From Narcine bancroftii (taxonomy: Eukaryota), in the NCBI RefSeq assembly GCF_036971445.1, contig NC_091476.1, positions 33,232,001 to 33,296,000 of the forward strand: DNA of 64,000 nt. The letters run 5' to 3'. Of this stretch, positions 808 through 58,890 are shown piece after piece. The position numbers were made by a program, and so were the translations under genes. How positions within the stretch are numbered: the stretch's first letter is position 1; each line of letters starts with the position of its first letter. Below the pieces are notes generated by a model, which ran no database searches, was not told the origin of the DNA, and was given only the letters and a program-made list of their open reading frames with translations.

Positions 808-1000
808 ATAAGAGATAGGAGCAGAATGAGGCCATTGGGTCATCAATTCTGCTCTTCTATTTGATCATGGCATAAGCATTCTCCTTTCAACCATTTACAT
901 GCCTTCTCCCAATTACCTTTGACGCCCTTACTAATCAAGAACCTATCAACCACTGCTTTAATGACTTGGCCTCCACAGCCATCTGTGCCAACATATTACA
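808..1000 (-). mobile_element. CR1-type LINE 3' tail fragment
   Basis: ATAAGAGATAGGAGCAGAATGAGGCCATT...GATCATGGC resembles the CR1 3' tail at 20395-20490 in the same orientation. Confidence 0.65.
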
Positions 1001-1016
1001 CAAATTTAGAGGATTT

Positions 1017-2120
1017 AGTATGGTTTTGTGCATGGGAAATCATGCTTCACAAATTTAATTGAGTTTCTTTGAAGTGACCAAGAGGATTAACAAGGGCAAG
1101 GCAGTAGACATTGATCACATAGAATTTAACAAGCCTTTTGACAAAGTGTCACTTGGTCAGTTTAGACCACATGAATACAGGGTGAGCTAGCCAATTTTCT
1201 TGGCAAAAAGAGTAAGAAGGTAGTAGTGGAAAGTTGTTGTTTAGACTGAAGTCCCGTGACCAGTGTACTGAAGAGATTGAAGCAGTGTCCCCTGTTGAGT
1301 GCAATATTTATTAATGATACAGCTGAGAATGTAGATAGCAAGATTCATCAGTTTGCAAAATTGGTGTGGCATACTGAATGTTCAAATAACCTCAATAACA
1401 AGATCTAGACAAAATTGGAAAGAGGCAAAGGATTGGAGCATGTATTTTACCTCAGACAAACATGAAGCGATGCATTTTGGAGTTCAATCAGGCAGAAATA
1501 CATAGTGAATGGCAGAATGCCAGAAAACATTGTAGAACAGAGACCTCTGAGTGCAAATATATTGTTCCCTGAATGTATTGTTGAGACAAGGAGGTGAAGG
1601 AGGCAAAATGCATGTTTTCCAAGATAAGAGGGATGTTGGTTGGCAGATTCAGGAGTATGTAGCCAGGACTGGATGGCATCACTCATCAGGAGAGATTGAA
1701 CTGGCTGGAACTGTTTTCCATCAAGTGAAAGAGGCTGGAATCTGACCTTACGGAGGTTTATATCATCATGAAGGACATAGATGCGGTAGCTGGTTCCAGT
1801 CTTGCTTTTCCAGTGTAGGAGAATCTAAAACAAGAAGTCATATGTTTACAGTGAGAGGGATAAAGATTTAACAAAGACTGAGAGGACTTTTTCCCACATA
1901 GAAGGTGGTGGGTATATGAAAGAATCTACCAGAGGAATTGACAGATGAAGAAGAACTACAATATTTAAAAAAACACTTAGACAGGAACACAGATAGGAAA
2001 GGTTTAGAGGGGCATGGGAAAAATGCAGGCAAATAAGACAAATTCAATCAGGCATTTTGATTGTCATAGATGAGTTGGACCAAAGAGATGATGAGGGTGC
2101 TGTGTAACTCTGTGACTATA
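1017..2120 (+). mobile_element. Old 5'-truncated CR1 LINE (decayed RT and 3' UTR)
   Basis: Decayed codons for GFVHGKSCFTNLIEF and AFDKV, collinear with the CR1 ORF2 at 60020-61236; ends in a CTCTGTGA-like tail. Confidence 0.8.
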
Positions 2121-2429
2121 ACCAAAACCTCTTGCATATAAAACCATTTATTTCCTCATGACTTTGAGTATTTCTCTCTGAATATCTTCTTGTGTGTCAT
2201 TTTTTTTCAAACTTTACTTAAAAGATAGAAAAAAAACATAACATACAGTGTAATAATAATAAAATGATTTTAAAAAGATATATATATATTAAAAAATCAA
2301 ATTAAAAAAATTAAAAATCCAAAAATAAACCACCCCACCCTCCCACCCCTTCAGCCAACTCCCTTAAGGGGAACAAAAAAATATAGACTATATATAAAAA
2401 GAAAATATTATAAATGTTAATAACAGTTC

Positions 2430-19313: not shown

Positions 19314-20488
19314 AATAAATTGTTGATTGAGGAAGCTGGCAACATGGCAAGTTATGAAGGGAGACCTATTTAGAATCAGTAACGGAGAAGAGGGAAAATT
19401 TGCAATAATCCACAATGGAACAAATCCCTGGCTGAATGAAAGGAAAATAAATAACTTGGAAGCATTAGTGATACAAACAAAGTGATCAAACCAATGAACC
19501 ATTGATGGGGAAACTTGGAAAATGGAATAGGTCCTTACAGAAAGTGTCAGATCAAAGTCATGATCAACTTAGCTTCTGGAGTAAAGTGACTTCAAGTATT
19601 AAAAGAGTTACAAAGAATGAGAATGAAGGATAGAACACAATTCAATAAAAGTTTAATGATCCAGAAGCAAGGACAAATGTCATAATAAATCAGAGAGGTT
19701 GGTACAGAAAGATCCATTCAATGTACCATATTAGTTCTTGTCTACCAGGTTGATGTTTTACAGATAATCTTTACTGCTCACTTTACAGAGCTGATAATCT
19801 TCAATGAAACAACCAAGTGGAATATAGTCAAGAACAGAGGAAGGACACAAACTAAAATCTTCTCTCACATATATTGACATTTTTTTTGCAAAAGAGGCCT
19901 TTATATTTTATAACATGATCAGACTATATTTGCATCCTTGAATTAAATCCAAGGACTCTAAGCATTGAGTTCATATTTTTTTTTAAAGTTAACCAAGTGC
20001 TTTGAATCCTTGAATTCAATTCAAAGTGCAAATATAGTTTGAATTTGTTACAAAATAAATTAACTTCATGAACACAAAATCTAGAATTATTTCAGTAAAT
20101 TTTTCTGAGGTTCATTTTGTTTCAATAATATTGCCAAGTTAGATTGCAAAAGTTTTTGTTATCCTTGATTTTCATTTCTTGTTTCATTTCTGGATATAAA
20201 ATATCATAAGTGCAATTCATATTTGCATTACTTTTAAAAATGCTATTAAAACCCTGTTCAAACTACATGCAAGGAATGTTCTGCAAATGAATTAAATGTT
20301 CCTGCATGAACTCTCAGTATCACTAAAACATGTTTTTTTTTTCATTGAAAGCTTATAATTTGTCCTTGGTTTGTTGCTCCTTCCTGATGTCATCGAAACA
20401 TAGCAACATAGAAAATAGGTGTAGGAGTAGGCCATTTGGCCCTTCAAGCCTACACAGCCATTCATTTTGATCATGGCTGATCATCCAC

Positions 20489-23470
20489 TCAGTACCCTGT
20501 TCCAGCTCTCTCTCTCAATAATCCCTGATTCCCCTAGTCACAAGTACTAAATCTAACTCTCTCTTAAATATATCTATGGAACCAGCCTCAATGACTTCCT
20601 GTGGCAGAGAATTCCATAAATTCACCACCCTCTGAATGAAAAAATTCTTCCTCATCTCAGTCCTAAAGGACTTCCCCTTTATCCTTAAACTGTGACCCCT
20701 GGTTCTAGACTTGCTCAACATTGGGAACAATCTTCTTGCATCTAGCCTGTCAAATCCCTTAAGAATTTTGAATGTTTCTATTAAATCTCCTCTTAATCGT
20801 TTAAACTCCAGCGAGTACAAGCCCAGTCCTTCTAGCCTTTCTTCATATGCAAGTCCCACCATCCCTGGTATCAATCTGGTCAACCTTTTCTGCACTTTCT
20901 CCATGGCAATGATGTCCTTCCTCAGATAAGGAGACCAAAACTGAACACAATACTCCAGGTGAGGTCTCACCAAGGCCCTATACAATGCATCAATACCTCT
21001 CTGCTCCTGGACTCAAATCCTCTTGATATGAATGCCAACATACCATTCACCTTTTTTACTGTTTGCTGCACCTGCCTGCCCACTTTTAATGACTGATGCA
21101 CAGCGACACCCAGGTCTCTTTGCATCTCCCCTTTTCCTAATTGGATACCATTAAGATAGTACTCAGCCCTCCCATTCTTTCCTCCAAAGTGGATAAGCAC
21201 ACACTTATCCACATTATATTGCATCTGCCATGCATTTACCCACTCACCCAACCTGCCCAAGTCACCCTGCACACTCTTAACAGCCTCTACACATCTTACA
21301 ATCCCACCCAGTTTCGTGTCGTCTGCAAACTTGGAAATGCTGCTTTCTATTTCCTCATCTAAATCATTAATATATATCGTAAATAACTGGGGTCCCAGCA
21401 CTGAGCCTCGTGGTACCCCACTAGTAACTGACTGCCATTCCAAAAAGTACCTATTTATTCCTACTCTTTGCTTCCTATCTGTCAACCAATTCTCTATCCA
21501 CCTCAATACCATATCCCCTATACCGTGTGCCTTAAGTTTGTATAGTAATATCCTGTGTGGGACCTTATCAAAGGCCTTCTGAAAATCCAGGTAAACCACA
21601 TCTACTGGTTCTCCCCTATCCACTCCACTAGTTACATCCTCAAAAAATTCAATAAGATTAGTCAGACACGATTTTCCCTTCATAAAACCATGCTGGCTTC
21701 TGACTAATTAATTCACCACTTTCCAGATGTGCTGCAATCACATCTTTAATAACTGACTCTGACAATTTCCTCACTACCAATGTCAAGCTAACCAGTCTAT
21801 AATACCCTGATTTCTCTTTCCCTCCCTATTTAAAAAGTGGAGTTACATTAGCCACCCTCCAGTCCTCAGGAAATACTCCAAAATCTAAAGAGTTTTGAAA
21901 AATTATCAACAATGCATCCACTATTTCATGGGCTTCCTCCTTTAGCACTCTGGGATGCAGACCATCTGGCCCTGGGGACTTGTCTGCCTTTAATCCCTTC
22001 AATTTATCCAACTCAACCTCATAACTTGCACTTATTTTCCGCAGTCCTTCCATCACATTAGCCCCATGGTCCCCTATTATTTCCTGAAGATTATTCATAT
22101 TTTCCCTAGAGAAGACCGAACTAAAGTAGTTATTTAATTGGTCTGCCATGTCCTTGTACCCCATGACCATTCACCTGTGTCTGACTGCAAGGGACCCACA
22201 TTTGTCTTTACTAGTCTCTTTCTCTTTACATATCTATAAAAACTTTTGCAGTCATTTTTTATGTTCCCTGCCAACTTTCTCTCATAATCTCTTTTGCCTT
22301 TCCTGATTAATCCCTTTGTCTTCCTCTGTAGAACTCTGAATTTCTCCTAATCCTCTGGTTTTCTATCTTTCCTGGCAAGTCTATATGCTTCCTCTTTACA
22401 CTTGATACTCTCCCTGATTTCCCTTGTTATCCAAGGATGTACTACCCTCCTTGAGTTATTATTTTTCCAAACTGGGATGAACAAATGCTGTATTTCATCC
22501 TGGTGATTCTTAAATGCTTGCCATTGCCTTTCTACAGTTAATCCTTTAAGTAACATTTGCCAATCTAACTTAATCAATTCGTGTCTCATACCCTCAAAGT
22601 CACCCTTCTTTAAGTTCAGAACCTGAGTTACAGAATTAACCCTGTCACTTTCCATCCTAATATAAAATTGCACCATATTGTGGTCACTCTTGCCCAAAGG
22701 GCTTCGCACAACAAGATAGTTAACTAACCCTTCCTCATTACTCAGAACCCAGTCTAGGATGGCCTGTTCCCTTGTTGGTTCTTCAACATACTGGGTTAGA
22801 AAATTATCCCGTATACCTTCTAAGAAATCGTCCTCTTCAATACCCTTACCAATTTGATTCATCCAGTCTATATGGAGATTAAAGTCACCCATTATAACTG
22901 CCTTGCCTTTGTTGCACGCATTTCCAATTTCCTGTATAATGCCATCCCCAACCACTCTACTACTGTTAGATGGTCTATATACAACTCCCACTAACGTCTT
23001 CTGCCCCCTTGCATTTTGCAGCTCTACCCACATTGATTCCACATCATTCAACCTAACATCCCTCCTTTCTATTGCTTTTAACTCCTCTCTAACCAACAAT
23101 GCTACCCCACCTCCTTTTCCTTTCTGTCTGTCCCTCCTGAATATTGAAAATCCATGAATGTTAAGCTCCCAGCTTTGGTCCTCTTAAAGCCATGTCTCTG
23201 TGATCCCAACTATATCATAGTCATTTACAGCTATCTGCACATTCAAATCATCCACTTTATTACGAATACTCCTTGCATTAAGACACAAGGCCTTCAAGCT
23301 TGTTTTTACCAGAGCCTTAACCCTATCACCATTATGCTGTAAAGCGGCCCTTTTACATTTTTGCCCAGTTACCTGTCTGCCTCTTTTGCTTTTCCTCCTC
23401 CTATCTCTGACTTCTTCCCTCATGCTAAACCCCTCTGTCTCTCTACTCCTGATCCTATCCCCCTGCCACA
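20489..23470 (-). pseudogene. CR1 ORF2 (APE endonuclease plus RT), frameshifted
   Basis: CLNARSIRNK, GITETWL, MGDFN, SDHN, KSPGPDGLHP, LDFQKAFDKV, KFADDTKL, LEYCVQFWSP. Confidence 0.95.
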
Positions 23471-24433
23471 TTAGTTTAAACCTTGCCCAACAATACCTCC
23501 AAACACACTTCCGAGGGCATTGATCTCGGTCCTGCCCAGATGGAGACCATCCTGTTTGAACTGATCCCATCTGCCCCAGAACTTATTCCAATGCCCCAAG
23601 AATCTGAACCCTTCCCACCTACACCACTGTTCAAGCCACATATTCATTCTATCTATCCTGCAATTCCTACTCTGACTAGCTCGTGGCACTGGCAATAATC
23701 CAGAGATTATTACCCTAGAGGTCCTACTCCTTAACTTCCTTCCAAACTCCATAAATTCTGCTTGTAGGACCTAATCCCACTTTTTTCCTTTGTTGTTGGT
23801 ACCAAAATGGACCACAACAGTTGGCTGTTCACCCTCCCCATCCAGAATGCCCTGCAGCCGCTCCGTGATATCCCTGACCCTTGCACCCGGGAGGCAACAC
23901 ACCAACCATGAGTCCCGTTTACGGCCACAGAAGCTCCTGTCTATTCCCCTTACAATTGAATCCTCTATGACTATTGACCTACCACTCTTTTTCCAGCCCT
24001 CTTGCACGGCAGAGCCACTCACATTGCCCTGACCCTGGCTACTACTGCCTTCTTCTGTTGGGCCATCTCCCCCAACAACATCCAAAGTGGAATATCTGTT
24101 TTTCAGGGAGATGACCACAGGAGACTCCTGCACTACCTTCCTGTTCTTACTCTTACCCTTGGTCACCCAGTCCCTATCTCTCTCAACTCTATGAAGCTGT
24201 GGTGTGACCAACTCACTAAAGGTGTTATCCACCAAATCCTCAGCACCCCAGATGCTCCAGAGCGAGTCCATGAGCAGCTCCAGTGCCGTCATGCGATCAA
24301 TCAGGAGCTGCAGCTGAACACACTTCCTGCACATGTAGTTCCCAGGGACACTGTCAGTCACCCTGAGTTCCCACATGACACAAGAGGAGCATGGCACTAG
24401 ATTGAGCTCACCTGCCATGTCTAAAATGACCAC
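23471..24433 (-). pseudogene. CR1 ORF1: zinc finger/leucine zipper plus SGNH esterase domain, interrupted
   Basis: CSSCVMW...CRKCVQLQLL, IVIEDSIVRG, CCLPGARVRD, VVHFGTNN, DGLHL; a frameshift and stop near 23770. Confidence 0.9.
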
Positions 24434-27449: not shown

Positions 27450-28064
27450 TGCATAGGTTTAAATTGTCCATATTTCAGAAGATGTCATCAAGAGCCAGGT
27501 CATCGAGGTGACCATAAAGAAGGTATGACTTGACTTTCTCAGGAGTCAGAGGAGATTTACCATGTTTTCAAGCAATCTATCAAACTTTTACAGGTGCACT
27601 GTGGAAAGTGCTAGTTATATCATATTCTGGCTTAGGAACACAAATGTCCTGGAACGTAGAAGGTTCCAGAAGGTAGAAAACATAGCCAAGTCGATCATAG
27701 ACTCTGACTTCTCATCCATTGAATACATCCATGTGAGTCACTGCCTTCTTAAGGCAGTCAAAATCACTCTAGTCACTGCTACCTTTGGACAGGAAGTATA
27801 GAAGCATCTCTGATGCCAAGAACAGTTTCTTTTCTACAGCTATCAAATTCATGAACCTCCCCATGACACATTAATCATGGACTGCTCCAACACCATAAAA
27901 GTATGCACAATTTCAGTTTTTTTTGCATCAGGAAAATTGTGAATATTATCCATTTTTTGTATTTATTGTCTTATAATTACATATTTTCAGTCGTTTTTTT
28001 TTTACAACTGACCTGTTCAGATGCAGTAAAAAAGAATGTTGATGAATGTATCATGTATATGATG
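27450..28064 (+). mobile_element. Rex-Babar LINE 3' fragment (Gypsy insertion target)
   Basis: LSNFYRCTVES, RRRFQKVENIAKSII; the tail resumes at 32587-32780. Confidence 0.7.
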
Positions 28065-28303
28065 TGTGATAGTACAGATTCTATCACCAATGTGTACATG
28101 TACATATGTACAGATGGTAGTGTAGGATGACTGTGATTGGCTGAGAGCGTAGCCACACCAACTGGCAGGTCTTAAAGGATTGCTCCTAGCCAGACCAGGT
28201 CATTCTGGACTGGTCGACCTACTTGTGATATGCTCCAGTCTTTTAGTTAATAAAAGCCTTGGTTTGGATCAACAAGTTTTTAGTTCTTTCGACGTGCATT
28301 ACA
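28065..28303 (+). repeat. 5' LTR (239 bp)
   Basis: TGTGAT...ATTACA, AATAAA at 28249; the first 82 bp recur at 32505. Confidence 0.9.
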
Positions 28304-28304
28304 A

Positions 28305-28319
28305 TTTTATTAACTAAAA
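28305..28319 (+). promoter_or_regulatory. Self-complementary primer-binding site candidate
   Basis: TTTTATTAACTAAAA is the exact reverse complement of LTR positions 28241-28255; there is no TGG-type tRNA PBS. Confidence 0.75.
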
Positions 28320-28334
28320 ATAAATTTTGAAGGG

Positions 28335-31300
28335 ATGGAGCGTTTGCTATGGCTAGAACGCCTCGACATTGACACACAGTCAGCTACAGCCTCGAATGAC
28401 TTTAAGCACTGGGTGAGGTGGTTCGAAACATTCTTAAACATTCTCTGATCCTGCCGTGTTAGAGGACAGCCATCGACTACTAATATTGATGACTATGGTG
28501 TCCCTGAGAGTCTACCAGAGTGTCCAGGATGCAACCACTTACGCTGCAGCCATGAAGTTGCTGAAAGGGCTCTACGAGCGACCAGTGAACAGGGTCTGTG
28601 CTCGGTACAAACTTGCTACAAGGAGGCAACAGCCCAGTGAGTCCTGTAAAGCTTATATTCAGGCACTAAGGGCAATGGGCAGGGACTGTGCCTGCACAGA
28701 GAGAACTGCTTCAGAGTCCACAGATGATCTCATTCGGGATGCCTAGGTGGCCAGGGTTCGATCGAATGAGGTGAGGCAGCGCCTGCTAGAGCACGGGGGA
28801 GAAAATCTAGAGGACGTGATCCGGATCGCAGAGACGATGGAGGCTGCGGTCTTAAGTATGGACATGTACTCTCGGGGCTGGACCACACACTCTGATGTGA
28901 GTAGGATGCCCTCCCTCTACCCTACTACTGCCGCTACGCTGCCCGATGCAACCCCAAAGTGTTATTTCTGCAGGAGGAGCAAGCACAGCAGGTCCCAGTG
29001 TCTGGAGAGAAAAGCCAAGTGCCAGAAGTGCCTTAAAAACAGCCACTTTGCTGCAGTCTGTCGTTCCAAACTGGCCACTCTCAAATACAGTGCCTCGTGT
29101 GAAGCCCATTCGCCACTCTCCATTTCAAACACTTCTTCCTCAGAGCTCTCTTCCAATGAGAGCGAGGCCTCCACCGCGCGGCAGTGCCTGATGTCACGGG
29201 GCAGACACCGAGCGCGCAAGGTACAACCCACCCTCGCCGCAATGACATTCACCCTAACGTCCAACCAGGCCCCAGCCCTGATCTCAATGCCAGCAGCCGC
29301 CACTGACCAGGGACCCACCACCGCCGTCGACCAGGGACCCATCGCTGCCAACCAGAGACCCGCTGCTGTCAACCAGGGACCCGCCACCACTGCCGACAAG
29401 GGACCTGCCGCCGCTGCCGACCGGGGACATGCCGACACTGCCAACCCGGTACCTGCTGACACTGCCATCCGGGGACCCGGCACCGCTGACCACCCCACCA
29501 CCGACGACAAGCAGTGACCCCCAACTCTTATCTTTGGCTTCAGGCAGCAACACCATCTCCCGACACTGTTTTTCCAGGCCCCACTGTTTGCGTGACGTCA
29601 TCACACACACGTTGCGTGACGTCATCAAGTAGGTCTCCACTGTCTACATTACAAGTCTCTGCATCAATAACCCCTGACCAGGACTTCCCCCAGCCTCTCA
29701 CAAAAGCAATGGAACTGATTAAAGTGCATAGTCACTATACCACTTGCTTATTTGACTCTGGGTCAACTGAGAGTTTTATCCGCCCAGACCTGGCCCACCA
29801 TTGCAGACTAGCTATTCTCCCCATTACACAGAGAATTTCATTGGCGAGCAGATCACATTCTACTGGGGTAAAGGGGTGCTGCGTGGCGACCCTGAAAGTC
29901 CAGGGCATCATGTTCACAGACTTCAAACTATTAGTTCTTCCCCAGTTGTGCGCCCCTGCTCTGCTGGGACTGGATTTTCAGTGCCAATTTCAAACCATTT
30001 CCCTGCACTTTGGGGGGCCTCACGCTCCACTCTCTGTCTGTAACCACTCCACCCCGGGAACCTCCTGCCAGCAGCAGCCCGAGCCACCCGCCCCCACGCC
30101 CTGGGGCCTCACCTGTAGTCTCTCTACCCTCCCAGTTGCTCTGCCAGCACTTTTTGCAAATCTCACCCCTGGCTGGAAGCCTGTGGCCGCCAAAAGCCGG
30201 CAATATAGTTCTGAACACAGGAAATTTATCACAAATGAGGTGCGCAGACTGCTGGATGAGGGCATTATCGAACCTAGCTTGAGTCCATGGAGGGCCCAGG
30301 TAGTAGTTGTTACAAACGGGGAGGAACCGCGGATGGTGGTTGACTACAGCCAGACAATCAACCGCTTCACACTTCTGGATGTGTACCTCCTTCCACGGAT
30401 CATGAATGTGGTGAATCAGATCACCCAATACTGTGTATTTTCCACCATTGACTTATGTTCGGCCTATCATCAGCTCCCGATCTGCCGAGAAGACTGACCT
30501 TTCACGGCCTTCGAGGCGAATAGGCAGCTGTATCAATTCCTCAGGGGTCACAAATGGTGTTGCGGTCTTCCAGCAGGAAATGGACCAGATGGTGGACCAG
30601 AACGGGCTGACTGCTATTTTCCCGTATCTGGACAATGTCACCATCTCCGGCCATTTCACGGAGGATCATGATGCCAACCTTGAGAAATTTTTTCAGACTG
30701 CACTTGTCTTCTGGACCACTCGGCTCGCAATTCTGGGCTGTGTGGTGGAGAACGGGGTGGTCATGCCGGACCCTGACTGCATGCGAAGGCACTCAAACGC
30801 AGCCTGGGTTTTTTCTCTTACTATGCCCAATGAGTTCCACACTTTGACGACAAGGCATGGCCACTCATCAAGACTACCTCCTTCCCCCTGTCAACCAAAG
30901 CCAAAGCGGCCTTCGACCACATCAAATCGGACATTACTGCTGCAATGCTGCACGCCATCGACATGTCCATTCCGTTCCAAGTCGAAAGCGATACGTTTGA
31001 CTTTGCACTGGTTGCCACTTTGAACCAGGCCGGTCGGCTGGTAGCCTTCTTCTCCAGAACCCTCCAGGGTCCTGACAGCCGACACTCCTCTGTCGAGAAG
31101 GAGGCCCAGGCCATAGTCGAGGCAGTACGTCATTGGAGACACTACCTCACTGGCAGGTGCTTTACACTGCTCACCGACCAATGCGCGGTCTCCTTCATGT
31201 TTAGCAATTCCCAGCGAGGTAAGATCAAGTATGACAAAATCACCAGGTGGAGAATCGAGCTCTCCACCTTTAATTATGACATACTGTATCGGCCAGGTAA

Positions 31301-32463
31301 ACTCAATGACCTGCCAGATGTGCTCTCCAGGGGGACTTGTGCCAACATGCAACTGGACAGGCTACAGAAACTCCACAAGGAGCTCTGTCATCCTGGGGTC
31401 ACTAGGTTCGCGTACTTTGTCAAATCTCGCAACCTGCCTGACACAGTTGAGGAGATTCACTCCATGACCTGGGCCTGCCCAGTGTGCACTGAGTGCAAGC
31501 CCCACTTCTTCCGTCCGGAGAACACCCACACCATCAAAGCCACCCGCCCCTTTGAGCATCTCAGCGTAGACTTCAAGGGTCCCCTACCGTCGACCAACCA
31601 TAACACCTACATCATAACGGCCATCAACGAGTACTCCCGCTTCCTGTTCGCTGTGCCCTGCTCGGGCATGACTGCCTCCTCAGTCATAGATGCACAGCAT
31701 CTTTGCCATCTTTGGGTATCCCAGTTACATCCACAGTGACAGAGGGTCCTCGTTTATGAGCGCGGAGCTGCGTCAGTACCTTCTGGAGCGTGGTATTGCT
31801 TCAAGCAGGACCACCAGCAATAACCCATGGGGTGATGGGCAAGTCGAAAGAGAGAATGCCACCTTCTGGAAAGCGGTTACGCTTGCCCTCCGATCCAAAG
31901 GTCTCCCCACCTCTTGCTGGCAGGATGTGCTCACTAGTGCCCTACACTCCATCCGCTCCCTCCTATGCACCGCAACCAATGCCACCCTTCGTGAAAGGAT
32001 GTTCTCTTTCCCAAGGAAATCTGAGTCGAGTACGACCATACCGGCATGGCTCACAGTTCCCAGTCCAGTCCTTTTACGACGCCACGTCCGGTACTCTAAG
32101 AATGACCCCTTGGTTGACCGAGTGACTCTGCTCCATGTGAACCCGCATTATGCCTACGTTGAGTACCCAGATGGACGGGAGGATACAGTCTCGGTAAGGG
32201 TCCTAGCCCAAGCTGGATCAGATGCAGCAGTGCCTTTAACCCAACCTCCCCCTATTCCTTCTCCCCCAGGTCATGTGCTTGAACAGATGGACCAGCAACA
32301 CCTCACCAGCTCAGGCCAGACTGTCGACAACGGCATTGGGAAATTGAGCAAAGCAGTGGCCACACCATACAGGCCTGCCGGCGACACGACTCTGGCGACC
32401 CCAATCCCGGCGCCATGACGGTCATGCCGAATGGTCAGACCCCCTGACCGGTACAGCCCCTAA
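28335..32463 (+). pseudogene. Gypsy gag-pol polyprotein, disrupted
   Basis: Gag LATRRQQPSES and CYFCRRSKHSRSQC/CQKCLKNSHFAAVC knuckles; PR LFDSGS; RT PWRAQ, VVDYSQTIN, YLDNV; RH SSVEKEAQAIVEA; IN LHKELCHPG..CPVC, VDFKGPLP, HSDRG, GQVERENA. Confidence 0.93.
29290..29515 (+). repeat. Coding minisatellite (21-24 nt units) in the gag C-terminus
   Basis: GCCGCCACTGACCAGGGACCC-like units encode AAATDQGP/TAVDQGP/AAVNQGP repeats. Confidence 0.85.
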
Positions 32464-32490
32464 CCTCCATTCACCCTGGGGTCGGTTCTC

Positions 32491-32504
32491 AAAGAAGGGG
32501 TGAA
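32491..32504 (+). promoter_or_regulatory. Polypurine tract
   Basis: AAAGAAGGGGTGAA lies directly before the 3' LTR. Confidence 0.85.
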
Positions 32505-32586
32505 TGTGATAGTACAGATTCTATCACCAATGTGTATATGTACAGATGTACAGATGGTAATGTAGGATGACTGTGATTGGCTGAGA
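32505..32586 (+). repeat. Truncated 3' LTR
   Basis: Matches 28065-28146 with 3 substitutions in 82 bp, then stops abruptly. Confidence 0.9.
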
Positions 32587-32760
32587 CACCATAAAAGGAT
32601 GCACAATTTCAAAGTTTTTTTTGCATCAGGAAAATTATGAATATTATCATTTTTTTGTATTTATTGTCTTATAATTACACATTTGCAGTCGTTTTTTTTA
32701 ACAAATGACCTGTTCAAATGCAGTAAAAAAGAATGTTGATGCATGCACCATGTCTGTGAT
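32587..32760 (+). repeat. About 170-bp direct duplicate of the left flank 27891-28064
   Basis: CACCATAAAAG.ATGCACAATTTC...AAAAAAGAATGTTGATG is present on both sides of the Gypsy. Confidence 0.92.
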
Positions 32761-33469: not shown

Positions 33470-33700
33470 AAATTTTTATCACGTCTCCTCTCAGTCTCTG
33501 AAAATTCCTGAGAAAATAACTTAAGTTAATCCAATCTTTCTTTGTCAGTTATACCTTCCCATCCAGGCGGCAGCCTGGTGAATCTTTTCTGCATCCTTTC
33601 CAAAGCTACACATCCTTTCTGTGAAGAAATATATACAGAACTCCAAGTGCAGCCTAACCAAGGATATATATATAAATGCAATGTGACTTCCTGAATCTTG
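33470..33700 (-). mobile_element. Old CR1 fragment
   Basis: SLVRLHLEFC motif on the minus strand. Confidence 0.65.
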
Positions 33701-33729
33701 CTCCCCTGATCTAGGAGTGAGATTCACTT

Positions 33730-36400
33730 AACTGAATGGTGCATCAACATGGCCTCGCACTCAATGTCACCAAAACCAAGGAGCTGATAGTTGCCTTCAG
33801 GAAGCGAAAACCAGAGGTATACAATTCAGTGATCATTGGGGTATCAGAAGTGGAGAGGGTGAGCAAATTTAAGTTCTTGTCCAGACCCAGCATACTAATG
33901 GCTTTGTGAAAAAAGTGTATCAGCTCCTCTACTCACAGGTGTGTTGAGGAGACCTTGGCAAATCAGAAACTTTGGCAAATTTCGACAGATGTATGATGGA
34001 AAGTGTGCTGACCAGCTGCACCATAGTCTGTTATAGGGACACTAATACCCCTGAGAAGAAAACCCTGCAAAAGGTAATGGAAACAACCCAGAATATCAAA
34101 ACCTTCCCTACCATTGAGCACATCTACAGGGAACACTGCCTTTGGAGAGCAGCAGCAGTCATCAAAGACCCATACCATCCAGCACATGGTCTGTTCTTGC
34201 TGCTGCCATTAAGAAAAGGTATAGAGGACACAAAACTCACTCCACCATGTCCAGGAACAGTCATTACCCCTCCACCATTAGAATCCTCAACAGTAAACTA
34301 AATTCTTTGGCTTGGCTTCGCGGACGAAGATTTATGGAGGGGGTAAAAAGTCCACGTCAGCTGCAGGCTCGTTTGTGGCTGACAAGTCCGATGCGGGACA
34401 GGCAGACACGATTGCAGCGGTTGCAGGGGAAAATTGGTGGGTTGGGGTTGGGTGTTGGGTTTTTCCTCCTTTGCCTTTTGTCAGTGAGGTAGGCTCTGCG
34501 GTCTTCTTCAAAGGAGGTTGCTGCCCGCCAAACTGTGAGGCGCCAAGATGCACGGTTTGAGGCGATATCAGCCCACTGGCGGTGGTCAATGTGGCAGGCA
34601 CCAAGAGATTTCTTTAGGCAGTCCTTGTACCTTTTCTTTGGTGCACCTCTGTCACGGTGGCCAGTGGAGAGCTCGCCATATAACACGATCTTGGGAAGGC
34701 GATGGTCCTCCATTCTGGAGACGTGACCCATCCAGCGCAGCTGGATCTTCAGCAGCGTGGACTCGATGCTGTCGACCTCTGCCATCTCGAGTACTTCGAC
34801 GTTAGGGATGTAAGCGCTCCAATGGATGTTGAGGATGGAGCGGAGACAACGCTGGTGGAAGCGTTCTAGGAGCCGTAGGTGGTGCCGGTAGAGGACCCAT
34901 GATTCGGAGCCGAACAGGAGTGTGGGTATGACAACGGCTCTGTATACGCTTATCTTTGTGAGGTTTTTCAGTTGGTTGTTTTTCCAGACTCTTTTGTGTA
35001 GTCTTCCAAAGGCGCTATTTGCCTTGGCGAGTCTGTTGTCTATCTCATTGTCGATCCTTGCATCTGATGAAATGGTGCAGACGAGATAGGTAAACTGGTT
35101 GACCGTTTTGAGTTTTGTGTGCCCGATGGAGATGTGGGGGGTCTGGTAATCATGGTGGGGAGCTGGCTGATGGAGGACCTCAGTTTTCTTCAGGCTGACT
35201 TCCAGGCCAAACATTTTGGCAGTTTCCGCAAAGCAGGACGTCAAGCGCTGAAGAGCTGGCTCTGAATGGGCAACTAAAGCGGCATCGTCTGCAAAGAGTA
35301 GTTCACGCACACGTTTCTCTTGTGTCTTGGTGTGAGCTTGCAGGCGCCTCAGATTGAAGAGACTGCCATCCGTGCGGTACCGGATGTAAACAGCGTCTTC
35401 ATTGTTGGGGTCTTTCATGGCTTGGTTCAGCATCATGCTGAAGAAGATTGAAAAGAGGGTTGGTGCCAGAACACAGCCTTGCTTCACGCCATTGTTAATG
35501 GAGAAGGGTTCAAGGTTTTATCGGTTTTTACTTTTTTTTCAAATAATCCATCTTTGCTATGCCTTTTCTCTTGTAAACCCAAATAGCTCAACAGTTATTT
35601 GGAGAAAAATCAGTGGCCAAATGTGTTTTTTTTTAAATCCTGAGGGTGGGAAAAGTAAGATTTTTTTGTTGGGACCAAGGTAAACTGCCTCAGGATCTTC
35701 GTGATGCCACCATCATCACCCTGTACAAAAACAAAGGCGAGAAATCAGACTGCTCAAACTACAGGGGAATCACGTTGCTCTCCATTGCAGGCAAAATCTT
35801 CGCTAGGATTCTACTAAATAGAATAATACCTAGTGTCGCCGAGAATATTCTCCCAGAATCACAGTGCGGCTTTCGCGCAAACAGAGGAACTACTGACATG
35901 GTCTTTGCCCTCAGACAGCTCCAAGAAAAATGCAGAGAACAAAACAAAGGACTCTACATCACCTTTGTTGACCTCACCAAAGCCTTCGACACCGTGAGCA
36001 GGAAAGGGCTTTGGCAAATACTAGAGCGCATCGGATGTCCCCCAAAGTTCCTCAACATGATTATCCAACTGCACGAAAACCAACAAGGTCGGGTCAGATA
36101 CAGCAATGAGCTCTCTGAACCCTTCTCCATTAACAATGGCGTGAAGCAAGGCTGTGTTCTGGCACCAACCCTAAACTAAATTAGGGACTCGTTTAAGGAC
36201 TTATTTATGCACTTTATTTGCTTTGTTTTCCTCTCTATATTGCAAAGTTTGTTTGTATTTCTTTATTTGCTTATCAGTGTACATTGTGTACAGTTTTAAA
36301 TTTCCCGACCCTTAAGTGCTAATTCTGTATTGCCCACAGGAAGAAAAGAACCTCAGGGTGGTATGTGATGTCATCTAAGTACTCTGACAATAAATCTGAA
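33730..36400 (+). mobile_element. Rex-Babar LINE interrupted by an RTE insertion (34305-36171)
   Basis: KTKELIVAFRK, NFDRCMMESVLTSC, IKDPYHPAHGLFLLLP; the 3' UTR resumes at 36183 and ends GACAATAAATCTGAAATC. Confidence 0.8.
34305..36171 (-). mobile_element. Young RTE-clade LINE copy 1, 5'-inverted, with captured local DNA
   Basis: Uninterrupted ORF 34357-35487 (QGCVLAP, LFADD, C-terminal CNRC..H..C), a 157-bp insert, and an inverted segment at 35665-36171. TSD TAAACTAAATT at 34294-34304 and 36172-36182. Confidence 0.95.
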
Positions 36401-37344
36401 ATCACTCTGATTAATGAAGGCAAAAACGCCATATATCTTTTTTTGGCATCCTTTCTACTTATGTTGTCACTTTCAATGAACTGTGGGCTTACCCCCCAAA
36501 TAGATCAAATGATTACTGCTGGAACTGGACTGCCTGAACAGTCAGTTATCCAGTCATGAAGGTTTGTCTGAATTCGATCTAGTACAGACTGCAGACTTCA
36601 TGACATGAAATGTAAAACCAAGTGTCTCTGACGAAGAGTTCAAATCTACAAATAAGTCATTTAAATTATCTTCAACACCAAAACCTGTTGAAGATCAAGA
36701 AAATTCCAAAATTGTTTGTTTGTCACGTCTGCTTCAAAAATTAAAGGCAAGCAATGTAGTCAATCTTTCAGCAGAACTGCATGGCTCTTACTTTATTTTA
36801 TTTTATTCTCATGTATTATTTATAGTGATCGTCATCTCAAAAAGGTCATGTCCTCAGCTGGCTTTGCAATCAAATGACATTGGTACAGACATTAAATCTA
36901 CACCAAGAACTCAGATGCTCAACTTGAAAATACTTTGTCTGTGACTTTGCAAATAAACCTCACCTCTTTGGATATAAATGCTCCATCTTTATGTCTCCAT
37001 AAAGACATTACAAATTGCATTTTTTCAGCTTTAACTGGGCATCTGGGAGCCATGATTAACCATGAATGTCAGTGATATTTCCTGTTTCTAGATCATCAAC
37101 AAAGGTACAATCCCTTTGGAGTAGAGATCATTTAGCCAGGTTCTATTTATACTTAACCAGATGCTTGCCAATTTTAATATTGTTTCAAAATCTTACTTTT
37201 CCCACCCTCAGGATTTAAAAAAAAACACATTTGGCCACTGATTTTTCTCCAAATAACTGTTGAGCTATTTGGGTTTACAAGAGAAAAGGCATAGCAAAGA
37301 TGGATTATTTGAAAAAAAAGTAAAAACCGATAAAACCTTGAACT

Positions 37345-37465
37345 TTGGAGTGAAATGTTGGTTCTTTACTTTTGCTCCATGAAGGACGCTGTTTGACCCG
37401 CTGAGCTTCTCCAGCATTTTGTGTTTTTACTTCATCCACAGTATCTATGGAATTTTGTGATTTAA
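37345..37465 (+). mobile_element. Penelope-like terminal repeat remnant
   Basis: GAAATGTTGG...TTTGCTCCATGAAGGACGCTGTTTGACCCGCTGAGCTTCTCCAGCATTTTGTGTTTTTAC is shared with 58130-58215 and 61555-62000. Confidence 0.7.
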
Positions 37466-38349
37466 TTTGGATTATAACATTCACTCTAATAATAGGACAA
37501 TAAATGCCAGGTTTAGCACCATCACCCCTCATCTTGATTTTTCTCTGATTCATAGATATAGCAATGAGAACATTGATGGATCTCCCACCTTCTGGAGATT
37601 CCTTATCTATGGCCCTCTTTTAGAGTCATGCAACATTGAACAGGTCTATCAGGCCAACCTGTCCATGATGTCTAATCTGTCTTTCTGAGCTGATCCCAAT
37701 TGCCTGCACTTGCTCCATATTCTTCTAATTAATTCCTGTCCAGGTATCTTTTGAACATTGGTTATGATGCAAAGGGGACTGATTGCTATATAATTTACTT
37801 TGTTCATTTATTCCAAAGCATTCCAAGAGATTTTGTACTCAAACCAAATCTTAATGGAAAACGATTACATTTTCTTTATCACTTGGTCACAAATTAGCAT
37901 CCAACCCATCAGCAGGAGTGGAGAAAAAAATAAATGTCAGCGCCACAATATGAACTAAGAGCCTCAGACAATTAAGCCACATTGCCTTTATGTTTTACAC
38001 AGATCCCTTTAGTATGGTGAAAGATTTTGAACTACTGTATCTTATTTGAATATTTGTGCCTCCGAAAGCAAGAAGCTGATTCAACAGATCTAAGTTGTAA
38101 TTATTTGTTTTGTCCACTTGCATTTCAACATGCTTAAAGGGTATCACAGTTTAAACAAAACTTCAGATCTTTGAATAATTAAGTATTTTCATGCATGATG
38201 CTTCATCTAACGCATCCTTTATGTATGTTAACTTGTACTCAGTTTCCTTATGAGATTTGGAATGTTGTTCCATTTGAATGAACCAGATTTGTGGTGCAAA
38301 CACTTTTCAAACTGTATTTGACATGACTGTCACAGAGTCATGGAATTAT

Positions 38350-39822
38350 CTTTCTTTGGCTTGGCTTCGTGGACGAAGATTTATGGAGGGGGTAAAAAGT
38401 CCACGTCAGCTGCAGGCTCGTTTGTGGCTGACCAGTCCGATGCGGGACAGGCAGACACGATTGCAGCGGTTGCAAGGGAAAATTGGTTGGTTGGGGTTGG
38501 GTGTTGGGTTTTTCCTCCTTTGCCTTTTGTCAGTGAGGTGGGCTCTGCGGTCTTCTTCAAAGGAGGCTGCTGCCCGCCAAACTGTGAGGCGCCAAGATGC
38601 ACGGTTTGAGGCGTTATCAGCCCACTGGCGGTGGTCAATGTGGCAGGCACCAAGAGATTTCTTTAGGCAGTCCTTGTACCTTTTCTTTGGTGCACCTCTG
38701 TCACGGTGGCCAGTGGAGAGCTCGCCATATAATACGATCTTGGGAAGGCGATGGTCCTCCATTCTGGAGACGTGACCCATCCAGCGCAGCTGGATCTTCA
38801 GCAGCGTGGACTCGATGCTGTCGACCTCTGCCATCTCGAGTACCTCGCCGTTAGGGGTGTGAGCGCTCCAATGGATGTTGAGGATGGAGCGGAGACAACG
38901 CTGGTGGAAGCGTTCTAGGAGCCGTAGGTGGTGCCGGTAGAGGACCCATGATTCGGAGCCGAACAGGAGTGTGGGTATGACAACGGCTCTGTATACGCTT
39001 ATCTTTGTGAGGTTTTTCAGTTGGTTGTTTTTCCAGACTCTTTTGTGTAGTCTTCCAAAGGCGCTATTTGCCTTGGCGAGTCTGTTGTCTATCTCATTGT
39101 CGATCCTTGCATCTGATGAAATGGTGCAGCCGAGATAGGTAAACTGGTTGACCGTTTTGAGTTTTGTGTGCCCGATGGAGATGTGGGGGGGCTGGTAGTC
39201 ATGGTGGGGAGCTGGCTGATGGAGGACCTCAGTTTTCTTCAGGCTGACTTCCAGGCCAAACATTTTGGCAGTTTCCGCAAAGCAGGACGTCAAGCGCTGA
39301 AGAGCTGGCTCTGAATGGGCAACTAAAGCGGCATCATCTGCAAAGAGTAGTTCACGGACAAGTTTCTCTTGTGTCTTGGTGTGAGCTTGCAGGCGCCTCA
39401 GATTGAAGAGACTGCCATCCGTGCGGTACCGGATGTAAACAGCGTCTTCATTGTTGGGGTCTTTCATGGCTTGGTTCAGCATCATGCTGAAGAAGATTGA
39501 AAAGAGGGTTGGTGCGAGAACACAGCCTTGCTTCACGCCATTGTTAATGGAGAAGGGTTCAGAGAGCTCATTGCTGTATCTGACCCGACCTTGTTGGTTT
39601 TCGTGCAGTTGGATAATCATGTTGAGGAACTTTGGGGGACATCCGATGCGCTCTAGTATTTGCCAAAGCCCTTTCCTGCTCACGGTGTCGAAGGCTTTGT
39701 GTCGCTGAGAATATTCTCCCAGAATCACAGTGCGGCTTTCGCGCAAACAGAGGAACCACTGACATGGTCTTTGCCCTCAGACAGCTCCAAGAAAAGTGCA
39801 GAGAACAAAACAAAGGACTCTA
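38350..39822 (-). mobile_element. Young RTE copy 2, 5'-inverted
   Basis: Sense part 38350-39699 is an open ORF; inverted part 39699-39825. TSD CATGGAATTAT at 38339-38349 and 39823-39833. Confidence 0.95.
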
Positions 39823-43745: not shown

Positions 43746-44461
43746 CACTGGTTCTCAACTTTCTTTTCCCACTCACATACCATCTTAAGTAATCTCATTA
43801 ACCACAGAGCGCCTATGGCAAAGGATACCATAGGTGCCCTGTAGTTAGTAAGGGATTACTTAAGGCAGTATGTTTCCCTAGAACACTTCTACCAGCGTTG
43901 TCTCCGCTCCATCCTCAACATTCATTGGAACGACTTCATCCCAAACATCGAAGTACTCGAGATGGCAGAGGCCGACAGCATCGAATCCACACTGCTGAAG
44001 ATCCAACTGCGCTGGGTAGGTCACATCTCCAGAATGGAGGACCATCGCCTTCCCAAGATCGTGTTATATGGCGAGCTCTCCACTGGCCACCGTGACAGAG
44101 GTGCACCAAAGAAGAAGTACAAGGACTGCCTAAAGAAATCTCTTGGTGCCTGCCACATTGACCACCGCCAGTGGGCTGATATCGCCTCAAACCGTGCATC
44201 TTGGCGCCTCACAGTTCGGCGGGCAGCAACCTCCTTTGAAGATGACTGCAGAGCCAACCTCACTGACAAAAGACAAAGGAGGAAAAACCCAACGCCCAAC
44301 CCCAACCAACCAATTTTCCCTTGCAATGCTGAAACCGTGTCTGCCTGTCCCGCATTGGACTTGTCAACCACAAACGAGCCTGCAGCTGACGTGGACATTA
44401 CCCCTCCATAAATCTTCATCCGCGAAGCCAAGCCAAAGAAGAAAAAGTTTGAGAACCAGTG
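43746..44461. mobile_element. Palindromic hAT (Charlie-like) MITE, ~150 bp, interrupted by RTE copy 3
   Basis: TIRs CACTGGTTCTCAAC and TTTGAGAACCAGTG; 8-bp TSD TGTTACAT (43738) and TGTTACAC (44462); internal palindrome centred about 43822. Confidence 0.85.
43876..44447 (+). mobile_element. RTE copy 3 (older, 5'-truncated)
   Basis: Same family as 34305 and 38350 with more substitutions and a frameshift near 44325; tail AAGAAGAAAAAG. Confidence 0.92.
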
Positions 44462-46287: not shown

Positions 46288-47405
46288 CCTCACCCCCTCC
46301 CCCCCTCCCCCCCACTAACTGTTCTGTCCTGTTGGGATTGGGGATTGGTGGCTTTTGGAAATTTGGCTCTGGGGAAGAATTGAGGATTAGGTGGATCAAT
46401 CACAATAATTTTGAATGGTAGAGCAGGGTTGAGAGGCCTGACCACCTGATCCAGCTCCTATTTTTTTCTGCTTGTGTCACAAGAAATATCGTTTCAATAT
46501 ACTCTTAAAATAGAATTACTAATTAGACCACACGCTGAGAAAAGAAAATCCTAATGCAAATTCAAGTAGATAAGTAGAACAATCTTATGTAAACGATAGG
46601 CTCATCAATGACTCAGAAAGATGAAACAGCAATATGACATTGAGAGAACACTGATTGTTTTATAAATTCCATCGAAGCCATTTGTATGTCCTTTGACTGA
46701 TTGCTGCTGCAGTGCTCTCCAAAGGTTGACTGGACAGAAAAGAAATCATCATTTTTGGGGAGAAATTATAACATAAAATGATACATATTAGATGAAAAAA
46801 AACCCAATGTTTCCTAATATCCAAGGACACAAGAAGAATAGACTTATTCATTTTGAAACTTTGCATTAAATGTTTCATGTTACAATGCTATTATAAGGAA
46901 ATGAGCAATTAAGGGTAAAGGAACAATCTATGAAAATATTACATCTTGCAATTGGAAAAGAGTACACACCAGACTCATGACGTGAAGGAAATCCTGGAAC
47001 TCAAACTGCCTTGAGTGTGAAGGCAAGGAATTTAAGAACTTAATTAGCATTATTTGATGAAAATGTGGATTTTATTCTTCTACAGAATAGTGGAACATCC
47101 ATTACAGATTACTGAAACATTTTGTTGGAATCATTTAGCATTGCTCTATCAAATTCACTTCAAGCTATTGGGAAACATTATGCACCCATCTCTCTCCCAT
47201 ACTGTACTATCATTGGGAACACATGGGAGTAAACAGTGAACTCAACACAATATGCAAGAATTTACCAATGTAGAGGCATTAAATTATGCAATTTCCCAAA
47301 CTAAATACAATATTTGAAATTAAACATCTCACTATAAATATTGTGCGCATTATTGTCACACTTGTTTACACAATGTTTACAGGTTCATTAGCACTCAAGT
47401 GCCAA

Positions 47406-47805
47406 GATCGTATTATATGGCGAGCTCTCCACTGGCCACCGTGACAGAGGTGCACCAAAGAAAAGGTACAAGGACTGCCTAAAGAAATCTCTTGGTGCCT
47501 GCCACATTGACCACCGCCAGTGGGCTGATAACGCCTCAAACCGTGCATCTTGGCGCCTCACAGTTTGGCGGGCAGCAGCCTCCTTTGAAGAAGACCGCAG
47601 AGCCCACCTCACTGACAAAAGGCAAAGGAGGAAAAACCCAACACCCAACCCCAACCAACCAATTTTCCCTTGCAACCGCTGCAATCGTGTCTGCCTGTCC
47701 CGCATCGGACTGGTCAGCCACAAACGAGCCTGCAGCTGACGTGGACTTTTTTACCCCCTCCATAAATCTTCGTCCGCGAAGCCAAGCCAAAGAAAAAGAA
47801 AGAAA
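47406..47805 (+). mobile_element. Young RTE copy 4, simple 5' truncation
   Basis: 3' 400 bp of the family; TSD AGCACTCAAGTGCCAA at 47390-47405 and 47806-47821. Confidence 0.95.
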
Positions 47806-51032: not shown

Positions 51033-51833
51033 CTGAAAAGTAAAAATATGCAGCAAATACAATCAACTGTCGAATGAAGAAAAAACTGCAGAACAATTGA
51101 TATTATTTCCCCAATTACACATAATATATTCGTATTCACAACATACTAGAATGAATGAATGTTGTAAATTTACTGCAGTCATGGAAAAAGGCAAAGTTCA
51201 GGGGGAAACAGTGCTACATTAAATAAATGAGAAGTAACAAGTCCAACAATGTGCACAATACAGCTAGCAGAGTGCAACATACATTATTAATGACAGTCTA
51301 TCGCGAAACCAAAAACAGTAACCGAGCAATGCAGTTTCATCAATTGTGCATGTAAACGAGTTGACCAGCAACATGTCCAACTTCTAATTCAATTAAAATC
51401 CATGGTAATTCTACATGCATATTAAGAAACAAAATAAAAACATGAAACTTTAAAAAGAAGATTGAAAATATAGATAATCATTAAATATATAGATCATTTT
51501 TATATTTTATTTCATATTTAATATGATTTTTTTGATGCAATGTTCACAGAAAAAGCTTTACATACTCGGAGAAGAGTGGATTTCCGTATTATCTGAATAT
51601 TTTATGAATTGACTTCTGCTGCTTGTCTCTGAAGTAAAATTATTATTCAGCACACTTGCTGCAAAAATTGCAAGTTTAATTTGGTTCATATCAGTTATGC
51701 CATGTATACTTGAGAAGTTCTGATATGCATGTTACGTTGAGAAAGAAATTCCTTGGAGATTATATCTTGGTAGATAAAAGAAGGACACATTAAATTTTAA
51801 TAGCATATTTTACTGATAATTAACTATTTGAAT

Positions 51834-52750
51834 GAAATGGTGCAGCCGAGATAGGTAAACTGGTTGACCGTTTTGAGTTTTGTGTGCCCGATGGAGATGT
51901 GGGGGGGCTGGTAGTCATGGTGGGGAGCTGGCTGATGGAGGACCTCAGTTTTCTTCAGGCTGACTTCCAGGCCAAACATTTTGGCAGTTTCCGCAAAGCA
52001 GGACGTCAAGCGCTGAAGAGCTGGCTCTGAATGGGCAACTAAAGCGGCATCGTCTGCAAAGAATAGTTCACGGACAAGTTTCTCACAAAGATAAGCGTAT
52101 ACAGAGCCATTGTCATACCCACACTCCTGTTCGGCTCCGAATCATGGGTCCTCTACCGGCACCACCTACGGCTCCTAGAACGCTTCCACCAGCGTTGTCT
52201 CCGCTCCATCCTCAACATCCATTGGAGCGCTTACATCCCTAACGTCGAAGTACTCGAGATAGCAGAGGTCGACAGCATCGAGTCCACGCTGCTGAAGATC
52301 CAGCTGCGCTGGATGGGTCTTGTCTCCAGAATGGAGGACCATCGCCTTCCCAAGATCGTGTTATATGGCGAGCTCTCCACTGGCCACCGTGACAGAGGTG
52401 CACCAAAGAAAAGGTACAAGGACTGCCTAAAGAAATCTCTTGGTGCCTGCCACATTGACCACCGCCAGTGGGCTGATAACGCCTCAAACCGTGCATCTTG
52501 GCGCCTCACAGTTTGGCGGGCAGCAACCTCCTTTGAAGAAGACCGCAGAGCCCACCTCACTGACAAAAGGCAAAGGAGGAAAAACCCAACACCCAACCCC
52601 AACCAACCAATTTTCCCTTGCAACCGCTGCAATCGTGTCTGCCTGTCCCGCATCGGACTGGTCAGCCACAAACGAGCCTGCAGCTGACGTGGACTTTTTA
52701 CCCCCTCCATAAATCTTCGTCCGCGAAGCCAAGCCAAAGAAAGAAAAAAG
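51834..52750 (+). mobile_element. Young RTE copy 5, 5'-inverted
   Basis: Inverted part 51832-52084, sense part 52082-52750; TSD AACTATTTGAAT at 51822-51833 and 52751-52762. Confidence 0.95.
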
Positions 52751-58220: not shown

Positions 58221-58890
58221 ACTTTGGTGCATGAAAACTATCTTCAGAACATCATACTCTGCTCTTAGACTCAATGGTGAGTCTATAGTGGTCCAGTCTC
58301 AATACCTGTCCACCTGACTATTTCAGATTCTTGTGTTTAGAAGTGATAATGCACAATTAGTGAAATTATTGATTTAAAATTTACTCTAATCATAATCACT
58401 CCAGCAACAGCATTTAAACGCATCCAATTTCTACTTATATCCTCAAAGCAAATTGAATGCAACTTTATATGGTAGTTTACAAACAGTGAGATATCTAAAA
58501 TGTTCTTGAAATGTGATAACAAGTCTATTTTCAGCCAATTTACCTGTCCCTTGTATGTTGATAATTTTGTATTGCTTGATTTCATCAGGAAAAAATTAAT
58601 GATTTTTCTATGTCAATCATGCAAAATACCTTTTGCCTGATCTCAAAGCCAATTACCTAAAACACCGTTTCAATAAATATTTAGTTTCTTGAACTAAAAA
58701 AAACATATAAGCCTTTGGACAGTTGGGTAGGCAACAGTTGAAAGTTATAGTCTATGTTCTGTTGGCTAAAGGGCAATAATGTGATCTTTATTAAATTCTG
58801 AATATATTCTGTGTGAGACTGAAAAGATCATATCTCTGCTGAATAATTCATTCATCTCAAATACTGTCACAACCTGGGTGTGACTCATAA

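Follow-up and report, generated by a model that had tools for sequence, protein, structure and literature searches.

Twin priming, in which a LINE copy acquires an inverted 5' part, has been described for L1 (bioRxiv 2024.08.27.596794; PMC11702581), and 5' inversion has so far been viewed as dependent on L1 and a mammalian host. In the available part of one report, inversions occurred with human L1 in human cells only, bar one Nimb-2 insert; the same source suggested that overhangs of ~5 nt are too short for inversion and proposed that ~10 nt or more are necessary (PMC4245944). Capture of local DNA during LINE integration is also already known from human L1. Three insertions of this element, and a fourth that combined it with twin priming, carry fold-back inverted duplications of 52-220 bp at the 5' flank (PMC10191854), and self-annealing of the resected reciprocal end of L1 has been described as leading to inversions and inverted duplications (bioRxiv 2024.12.14.628481, Fig. 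4D-E). Templated insertions at L1 amount to 22 cases of <250 bp, whose donors typically lie no more than 15 bp from the insertion point (bioRxiv 2024.08.27.596794), and the fold-back insertions of yeast involve small hairpins and a short range (PMC11724301). The locus described here differs in clade, in the 1-kb distance of the copied DNA and in the place of the copy, which is between the two cDNAs.

The insertion lies in a 64,000-nucleotide stretch of DNA, G000:C17:33232001-33296000 in the assembly, which was analysed as a whole and is referred to as the window. It is a LINE on the minus strand, 1.87 kb in total, and its parts were placed on a natural 3724-bp copy used as reference. The sense half (34305-35512, minus strand) runs from the 3' end to reference 2517 and the inverted half (35665-36172, plus strand) corresponds to reference 2066-2573, and both carry RT coding sequence (Pfam RVT_1, E 7e-12 and E 8e-24, respectively). 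We infer that the sense half is the product of the first cDNA (cDNA1) and the inverted half that of the second (cDNA2). An 11-bp target-site duplication (TSD), TAAACTAAATT, is found at 34294-34304 next to the element's 3' end and at 36172-36182 on its 5' side. The last 2 bases of the first copy also fit the RTE 3' end, with BLAST alignment to other RTE copies beginning at 34303, and position 36172 is common to the inverted half and the TSD. The second-nick primer is complementary to the RNA over a single nt here; among 34 inverted copies, a raw count of 28 show 1-6 nt of such complementarity. Both halves hold the same 57 bp (reference 2517-2573), at 35456-35512 on the minus strand and, as the reverse complement with 57/57 identity, at 36116-36172; this internal duplication was absent from an earlier sequence-only reading of the locus. 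That reading had placed a filler between the sense and inverted halves inside the 11-bp TSD, with GTTCA at one junction and a T run at the other, and the RVT_1 halves, the TSD copies and the junction letters all agree with it. GTTCA (35508-35512, 5 nt) belongs to both the sense half and the filler, and the T run is a T7 (35661-35667), to which the donor contributes 4 T and the RTE 3 T when reference and donor flanks are compared. The cDNA2 end, CAAA, fits the donor start over 4 nt, plus 3 extra A.

The exact inverted copy recognised earlier by eye was recovered by self-comparison: the filler (35508-35664, minus strand) is the reverse complement of the donor (37187-37343, plus strand) at 157/157 bases, homopolymers included (self-BLAST E 1e-76), and the identity breaks off sharply at either end. 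The match is far above chance and real in the assembly. The concern that the filler might be a high-copy repeat or part of the RTE consensus proved groundless, both being excluded by the genome search and the RTE comparison: the segment maps to two places only, filler and donor, in the whole 3.33-Gb assembly (595 contigs), and is without a match in the near-full-length natural RTE copy. Having two genome places only, the segment cannot have been inherited from a source element elsewhere. The donor is unique AT-rich DNA starting 1004 bp past the TSD, with no duplication surrounding it, and it sits within a single 1044-bp short-read contig that has no differences from the assembly (depth 5-6.5); this absence of duplication and the continuous contig exclude the reverse relationship, with the filler as original and 37187-37343 as copy. 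The donor had been placed 1 kb downstream, and the distance of about 1 kb holds, but in the element's own orientation it lies upstream, on the arm with the second nick.

The insertion splits an older repeat (left part ~33700-34304, right part 36183-~36400), and 12 other copies of that repeat span both parts. Within 1.43 Mb there were 24 matches to the end of the left flank and 17 to the start of the right flank, 12 of which pair up, and 9 of these 12 join the flanks in exact register (allowing for base 36183, which was left out of the comparison), so the target lost no DNA. Over 1716 compared positions the element departs from the most frequent letter at 10, each of these variants being common to at least 10 other copies, and its private variants number zero; many of the copies compared were chosen by likeness to the element, which inflates sharing and cannot create it. 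At the median rare divergence of the family (0.34%), filler and donor would be free of differences with P = 0.34. On these comparisons, element and filler can be counted among the youngest in the family, and they may share one age.

The element has a single EN-RT ORF (Pfam EN and RT) and no ORF1. A 1059-aa homologue aligns over reference 520-3676 with 75% identity and one frameshift in that copy, and the 520 bp upstream of this match are GC-rich and hold tandem repeats; the 5' end of the 3724-bp reference is provisional. Tails are short A/G (purine) repeats with no poly(A), and the TSD begins with A in 63 of 67 cases, a proportion partly forced by the A-ending tail. Human L1 ORF2p (70.6 bits) and an R2-type RT (70.9 bits) are equally distant, and the marks of the L1 clade, namely ORF1 together with ORF2, poly(A) and close likeness to L1 ORF2p, were not found. 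In the accessible parts of the literature, RTE elements are characterised by a single ORF with AP endonuclease and RT, a short 5' region and no ORF1 (PMC13174262), by a TSD peak of 10-12 bp (PMC4245944), and by a microsatellite-like tail that replaces poly(A), with animal TSDs starting with A (PMC6007223). One EN-RT ORF, the tail and the TSD length thus fit membership of the RTE clade. The label itself is in part our assumption; no RTE-named protein was among the homologues found. The protein of one copy (L022:1870-4647) is 70-74% identical to its best homologues, which include elements of lancelet and sea urchin, relatives from coral and shrimp ranking lower, a spread that would fit horizontal transfer. 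Within its 5' region the RTE has a tandem repeat of 15 bp, with ~45 units in one copy, and a ~170-bp repeat further upstream (L023, L024, C1:300.18 Mb). Other elements in the window are a Gypsy-type LTR element (27890-32760) with protease, RNase H and integrase, whose right LTR ends after 82 bp and which lies between direct repeats formed from 174 bp of duplicated host sequence (90% identity), and two 95.6% identical copies, in opposite orientation, of another LINE with EN and RT (20397-24433 and 58890-61328), presumably CR1-like by its motifs.

The frequency of inversion in the RTE family was determined in six arbitrary 200-kb blocks and 234 kb round the window (1.434 Mb in all, within a whole survey of ~1.9 Mb of the genome). 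Among 54 copies with a 3' end, 11 were 5'-inverted, one of them (C16) doubtful, with a diverged 5' piece and no TSD. A different counting rule gave 10/55 in the same sample, leaving out the window's five copies gave 8/49 (7 strict), and copies of at least 500 bp gave 11/35; loci picked by search gave 31/120, six of these 31 having been drawn by junction queries. The inverted fraction of the family is 14-20%, about one copy in six, and extrapolation to the genome gives about 125,000 copies, roughly 20,000 of them inverted. CR1, taken as a control for inversion rate, was found in only 2-3 copies, uninformatively few. An adjacent TSD (9-14 bp) accompanied 34 of 42 inverted copies versus 33 of 115 truncated ones (p 5e-9), and TSD length in the inverted copies was 11-12 bp in 25/34 and 10-12 bp in 28/34, the truncated copies being broader. 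The inverted segment usually starts no more than 60 nt from the sense start. Inverted copies with a TSD and an inverted start near the sense start make up the pattern described for L1 twin priming, and inversion of this type looks routine in this non-L1 LINE; in this and the other inverted copies both halves would come from RT acting at two nicks. Inverted segments that derive from the distant 5' region of the RNA, 0.5-2.2 kb away from where the sense part starts, were seen at three loci (L202:1367-2678, L186 and L255), two of them with a TSD. The window itself also holds a 5'-inverted RTE with an 11-bp TSD and an 18-bp internal deletion (copy B, 38350-39822), an older truncated RTE (copy C, 43877-44446) and a truncated RTE with a 16-bp TSD (copy D, 47402-47805).

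Inspection of 42 inversion junctions showed that 28 overlap by at least 1 nt, 3 are flush, 9 carry 2-10 extra nt, 1 carries 35 nt and 1 contains the long local filler. The 35-nt gap, that of C16, resembles diverged RTE 5' sequence and was not scored as capture. The long filler at 35508-35664 has no counterpart in the 41 other inverted copies, long local capture is rare in the RTE family, and the generality implied by the sequence-only reading is limited to that extent. An exact-match search of the copies collected earlier found no local templated DNA of >24 bp at their 5' ends besides TSDs and tandem repeats, and 20 loci added later were covered by the junction-gap check. Six fillers measure 4-10 nt, one of which was set aside as RTE sequence missing from the reference, and 4 of the 5 non-RTE fillers repeat the neighbouring cDNA end in inverted form, a raw count with no shuffle control. 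Three of these are 8-bp repeats on the cDNA2 side (L244 and L255 by script, L197 read by eye), the fourth is a 13-bp repeat on the cDNA1 side (L227), and the fifth filler (L215) is a direct slip of the cDNA2 end. Since the short fillers are mostly inverted repeats of a cDNA end, free cDNA ends of the RTE family seem to prime on their own strand. Two truncated copies (L194 and L195) have extras of 9 and 35 nt at the 5' junction, seemingly copied from the flank when read by eye, one of them inverted and the other direct plus a hairpin.

Some inversion junctions recur. Copy E of the window (51832-52750) and L222 (G000:C17:33302645-33303658) are inverted RTEs 18.5 kb apart that have different TSDs and the same inversion junction. 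Five variants are common to the two and absent from three other copies with that junction, and over the last 140 bp the two differ at six sites, where copy E follows another subfamily. Judged by these variants, copy E is a chimera, which may have arisen by a template switch onto its neighbour during integration or by later gene conversion. The idea that this junction is exclusive to copy E and its neighbour is weakened, as other haplotypes carry the same junction at two further loci and a near match at a third: the join of reference 2710 to 3065 is exact in two and near-identical in the third of L224 (C17:25.96 Mb), L225 (C16:60.92 Mb) and L226 (C5:314.49 Mb). With a haplotype and a TSD of its own at each locus, these three junctions are independent events via the same 3-nt match, and their recurrence may be due to a hotspot or to query selection.

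The cut geometry, the TSD, the 57-bp duplication, the donor and the junction letters are all present in the assembled DNA, and the account that we lean towards, on balance, is twin priming followed by fold-back of cDNA2 on its own resected strand, a 157-nt copy and a 5-nt microhomology join to cDNA1. The succession of steps, the end that primed and the enzyme belong to this reconstruction. A staggered cut, 11 nt apart, was made without loss of target. The first nick would have primed cDNA1 (34305 to 35512) and the 11-nt overhang of the second nick would have primed cDNA2 inside the RNA (36172 to 35665), cDNA1 extending 57 nt beyond the cDNA2 priming site. The two cDNA ends may then have remained unjoined, and the 5'-ended plus strand of the cDNA2 arm would have been resected or displaced over ~1.16 kb (36183 to 37343). 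The 3' end of cDNA2 (…CAAA) may have paired with its own minus strand at 37186-37189, with a loop of ~1.5 kb and a 3-A slip, after which a host polymerase of theta or delta type, or RT, would have extended it by 157 nt in the direction leading away from the break. The new end (…TGAAC) could have annealed to the cDNA1 end (…GTTCA), after which fill-in would have rebuilt the flank with no deletion. The proposal of the sequence-only reading that one integration event comprised twin priming and a local copy is supported by the TSD, the intact empty site, the zero private mutations and the unique donor.

Both cDNA 3' ends point to the filler, so the sequence alone permits two directions of copying. 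The 5' resection of a break strips the 5'-ended strand and leaves the 3'-ended strand exposed. We prefer cDNA2 fold-back because its template, the minus strand, carries cDNA2 and would be exposed by resection, and the geometry is of this kind, with the donor inverted, on the cDNA2 arm, and the template strand being the one that carries cDNA2. The GTTCA overlap at the cDNA1 join also resembles the family norm of overlapping junctions, and the short snap-back fillers of the family and the L1 fold-back duplications count in its favour as well. Priming by cDNA2 would give the features of a snap-back, a 4-nt match with a 3-nt slip and a 5-nt join; the cDNA1 reading is the less probable one. Several points speak against fold-back. 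The priming match is 4 nt only and requires the 3-nt slip, and the interval from the break to the far edge of the donor contains CAAA 17 times, so that the chosen site is not singled out; the short fillers come without a shuffle control and include one on the cDNA1 side; the 5-nt match at the other junction suits cDNA1 priming equally; the 1.5-kb loop would far exceed the small, short-range hairpins of the fold-backs at L1 ends and in yeast; and the event is single among the inverted copies.

Of the alternatives to cDNA2 fold-back, the one that survives best, and which we nonetheless hold unlikely, is a jump of RT from the RTE RNA to a nascent local transcript (cDNA1 onto plus-strand RNA or cDNA2 onto minus-strand RNA), with 157 nt copied and the ends joined. 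An RNA template would make the 1.16-kb resection unnecessary, and a blunt jump from end to end would suit the T7 junction. Precedents are found in the accessible parts of two reports, namely a single somatic L1 insertion that carried along pre-mRNA originating close to its target (PMC10191854) and U6 chimeras formed by RTE-like elements via template switching (PMC4476161). The filler is nevertheless without a sign of splicing or editing, and the short fillers of the family are snap-backs on cDNA, which is a DNA route. A host gene was not found either, with 0 Pfam matches in 144/355 non-repeat ORFs of the window and 20 kb on each side, a search that misses short or domain-less exons; no RNA data set was listed as covering 36180-38300, which speaks neither for nor against a transcript.

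In the DNA version of the sequence-only reading, cDNA1 switches by priming via GTTCA on the plus strand of the opposite arm, copies 157 nt toward the break and joins cDNA2 at the T/A run. The copying of local DNA stands, whereas cDNA1 as the switching end is not established, the route by cDNA2 and the minus strand being symmetric; we consider the cDNA1 version, by strand invasion or the sister chromatid, improbable. The best microhomology (5 nt) does lie at the cDNA1 junction, TGAAC occurring only 3 times in 1.16 kb, and L227 shows that cDNA1 ends are extended too. SDSA-like invasion by L1 cDNA is, moreover, the model cited for templated insertions in the available part of bioRxiv 2024.08.27.596794. 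The plus-strand template is, however, the 5'-ended strand that resection removes, which favours the cDNA2 route, and 5 nt are a weak basis for invading duplex DNA; pairing of T4 with A3 would shorten the run, yet all 7 T remain. The comparison of filler with transcription strand that had been put forward as a test cannot decide here, since either cDNA gives the same sequence unless the priming end is known.

A history of two events seems to us quite remote: an ordinary inverted RTE would have come first, and its junction, where the two 57-bp arms are able to pair, would later have broken and been repaired by a templated insertion taken from 1 kb away. One junction does lie at the edge of a 57-bp repeat arm, zero differences over 157 bp are compatible with any recent date, and templated insertions are a general scar of break repair in the accessible part of PMC11724301; the filler nevertheless occupies precisely the point of inversion in an element of 1.87 kb that shows no sign of other loss, and an element with no private mutation leaves little time for a second event. 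The short-read contigs compared came from one DNA sample in three runs, a run of another organism and a presumed RNA run. In these contigs, none crosses either junction and no empty-site joint is among the joints listed, and pruning at the neighbouring repeat, whose short-read depth is 25,000, or a different individual would give a junction gap too. An artefact of assembly or library, in which a chimeric read placed a copy of 37187-37343 in the repeat, would account for this gap beside an unbroken donor contig, and it is the least credible explanation of all, given that the contigs are simplified and weakly covered links to so deep a repeat would likely be pruned from them, that the sample may be from another individual, that a clean TSD, an exact empty site and microhomology all point to a biological origin, and that the assembled contig is 180 Mb long.

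The single event suggests that twin-primed LINE cDNA ends can stay unjoined long enough to copy DNA 1 kb off, and that closure after long copying can still take place without target loss. The inversion found throughout the RTE family is weightier than this one filler, which is rare and has precedents. An RTE with TSDs of 11-12 bp and an inverted fraction of one copy in six fits the ~10-nt-overhang proposal in the available part of PMC4245944, and separates it from ORF1p and mammalian factors. We met no report of RTE inversions in literature on twin priming or inversion with RTE or BovB, a coverage of titles and abstract starts with subscription journals mostly outside it, and the accessible parts of PMC6007223, PMC5389967, PMC4476161, PMC13174262 and PMC2912911 make no mention of them. 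We therefore advance only tentatively, at somewhat short of even confidence, the broader view that an ORF1-less RTE in a non-mammalian vertebrate twin-primes routinely, that an overhang of 11-12 nt suffices without L1, ORF1p or mammalian factors, and that unjoined cDNA ends copy chromosomal DNA 1 kb off, perhaps 18 kb in the case of copy E. If true, RTE would be an agent of local DNA duplication. With young junctions numbering tens of thousands, a single genome could show whether RT or a host repair polymerase writes the fillers, and which cDNA is extended.

Compared with known systems, the locus shares with twin-primed L1 a sense 3' part and an inverted 5' part within a discrete TSD, a short match at the 5' junction, and a small deletion or duplication at the inversion point, which is the 57-bp duplication here and a duplication in 17% of inverted L1. 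It differs from them in being a single-ORF RTE-type LINE with 11-12-bp TSDs and a purine-repeat tail in a host that is probably a non-mammalian vertebrate, to judge by the young CR1 and Gypsy-type elements nearby. As in SD-MMEJ or polymerase theta snap-back, a 3' end would prime on its own strand, copy and join by microhomology, and the 4-10-nt RTE fillers are similar, whereas snap-back tracts usually measure 5-34 bp and directly adjoin the break, and the enzyme here is putative. The L1 fold-back duplications likewise consist of an inverted copy of the flank from the second-nick side, of similar length and with the TSD kept; there the copy is in the 5' flank, the hairpin is small and the source is somatic clones, while here the copy lies between two cDNAs, the donor is 1 kb away and the element is not an L1 and is known from a genome assembly. 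With the L1 templated insertions the locus shares a non-element template of <250 bp copied during integration, from a donor 1004 bp off instead of typically within 15 bp, and with L1 'twin priming and switching' it shares an extra segment at the inversion junction, the segments at those junctions being derived from L1 and the one described here from the neighbouring chromosomal DNA.
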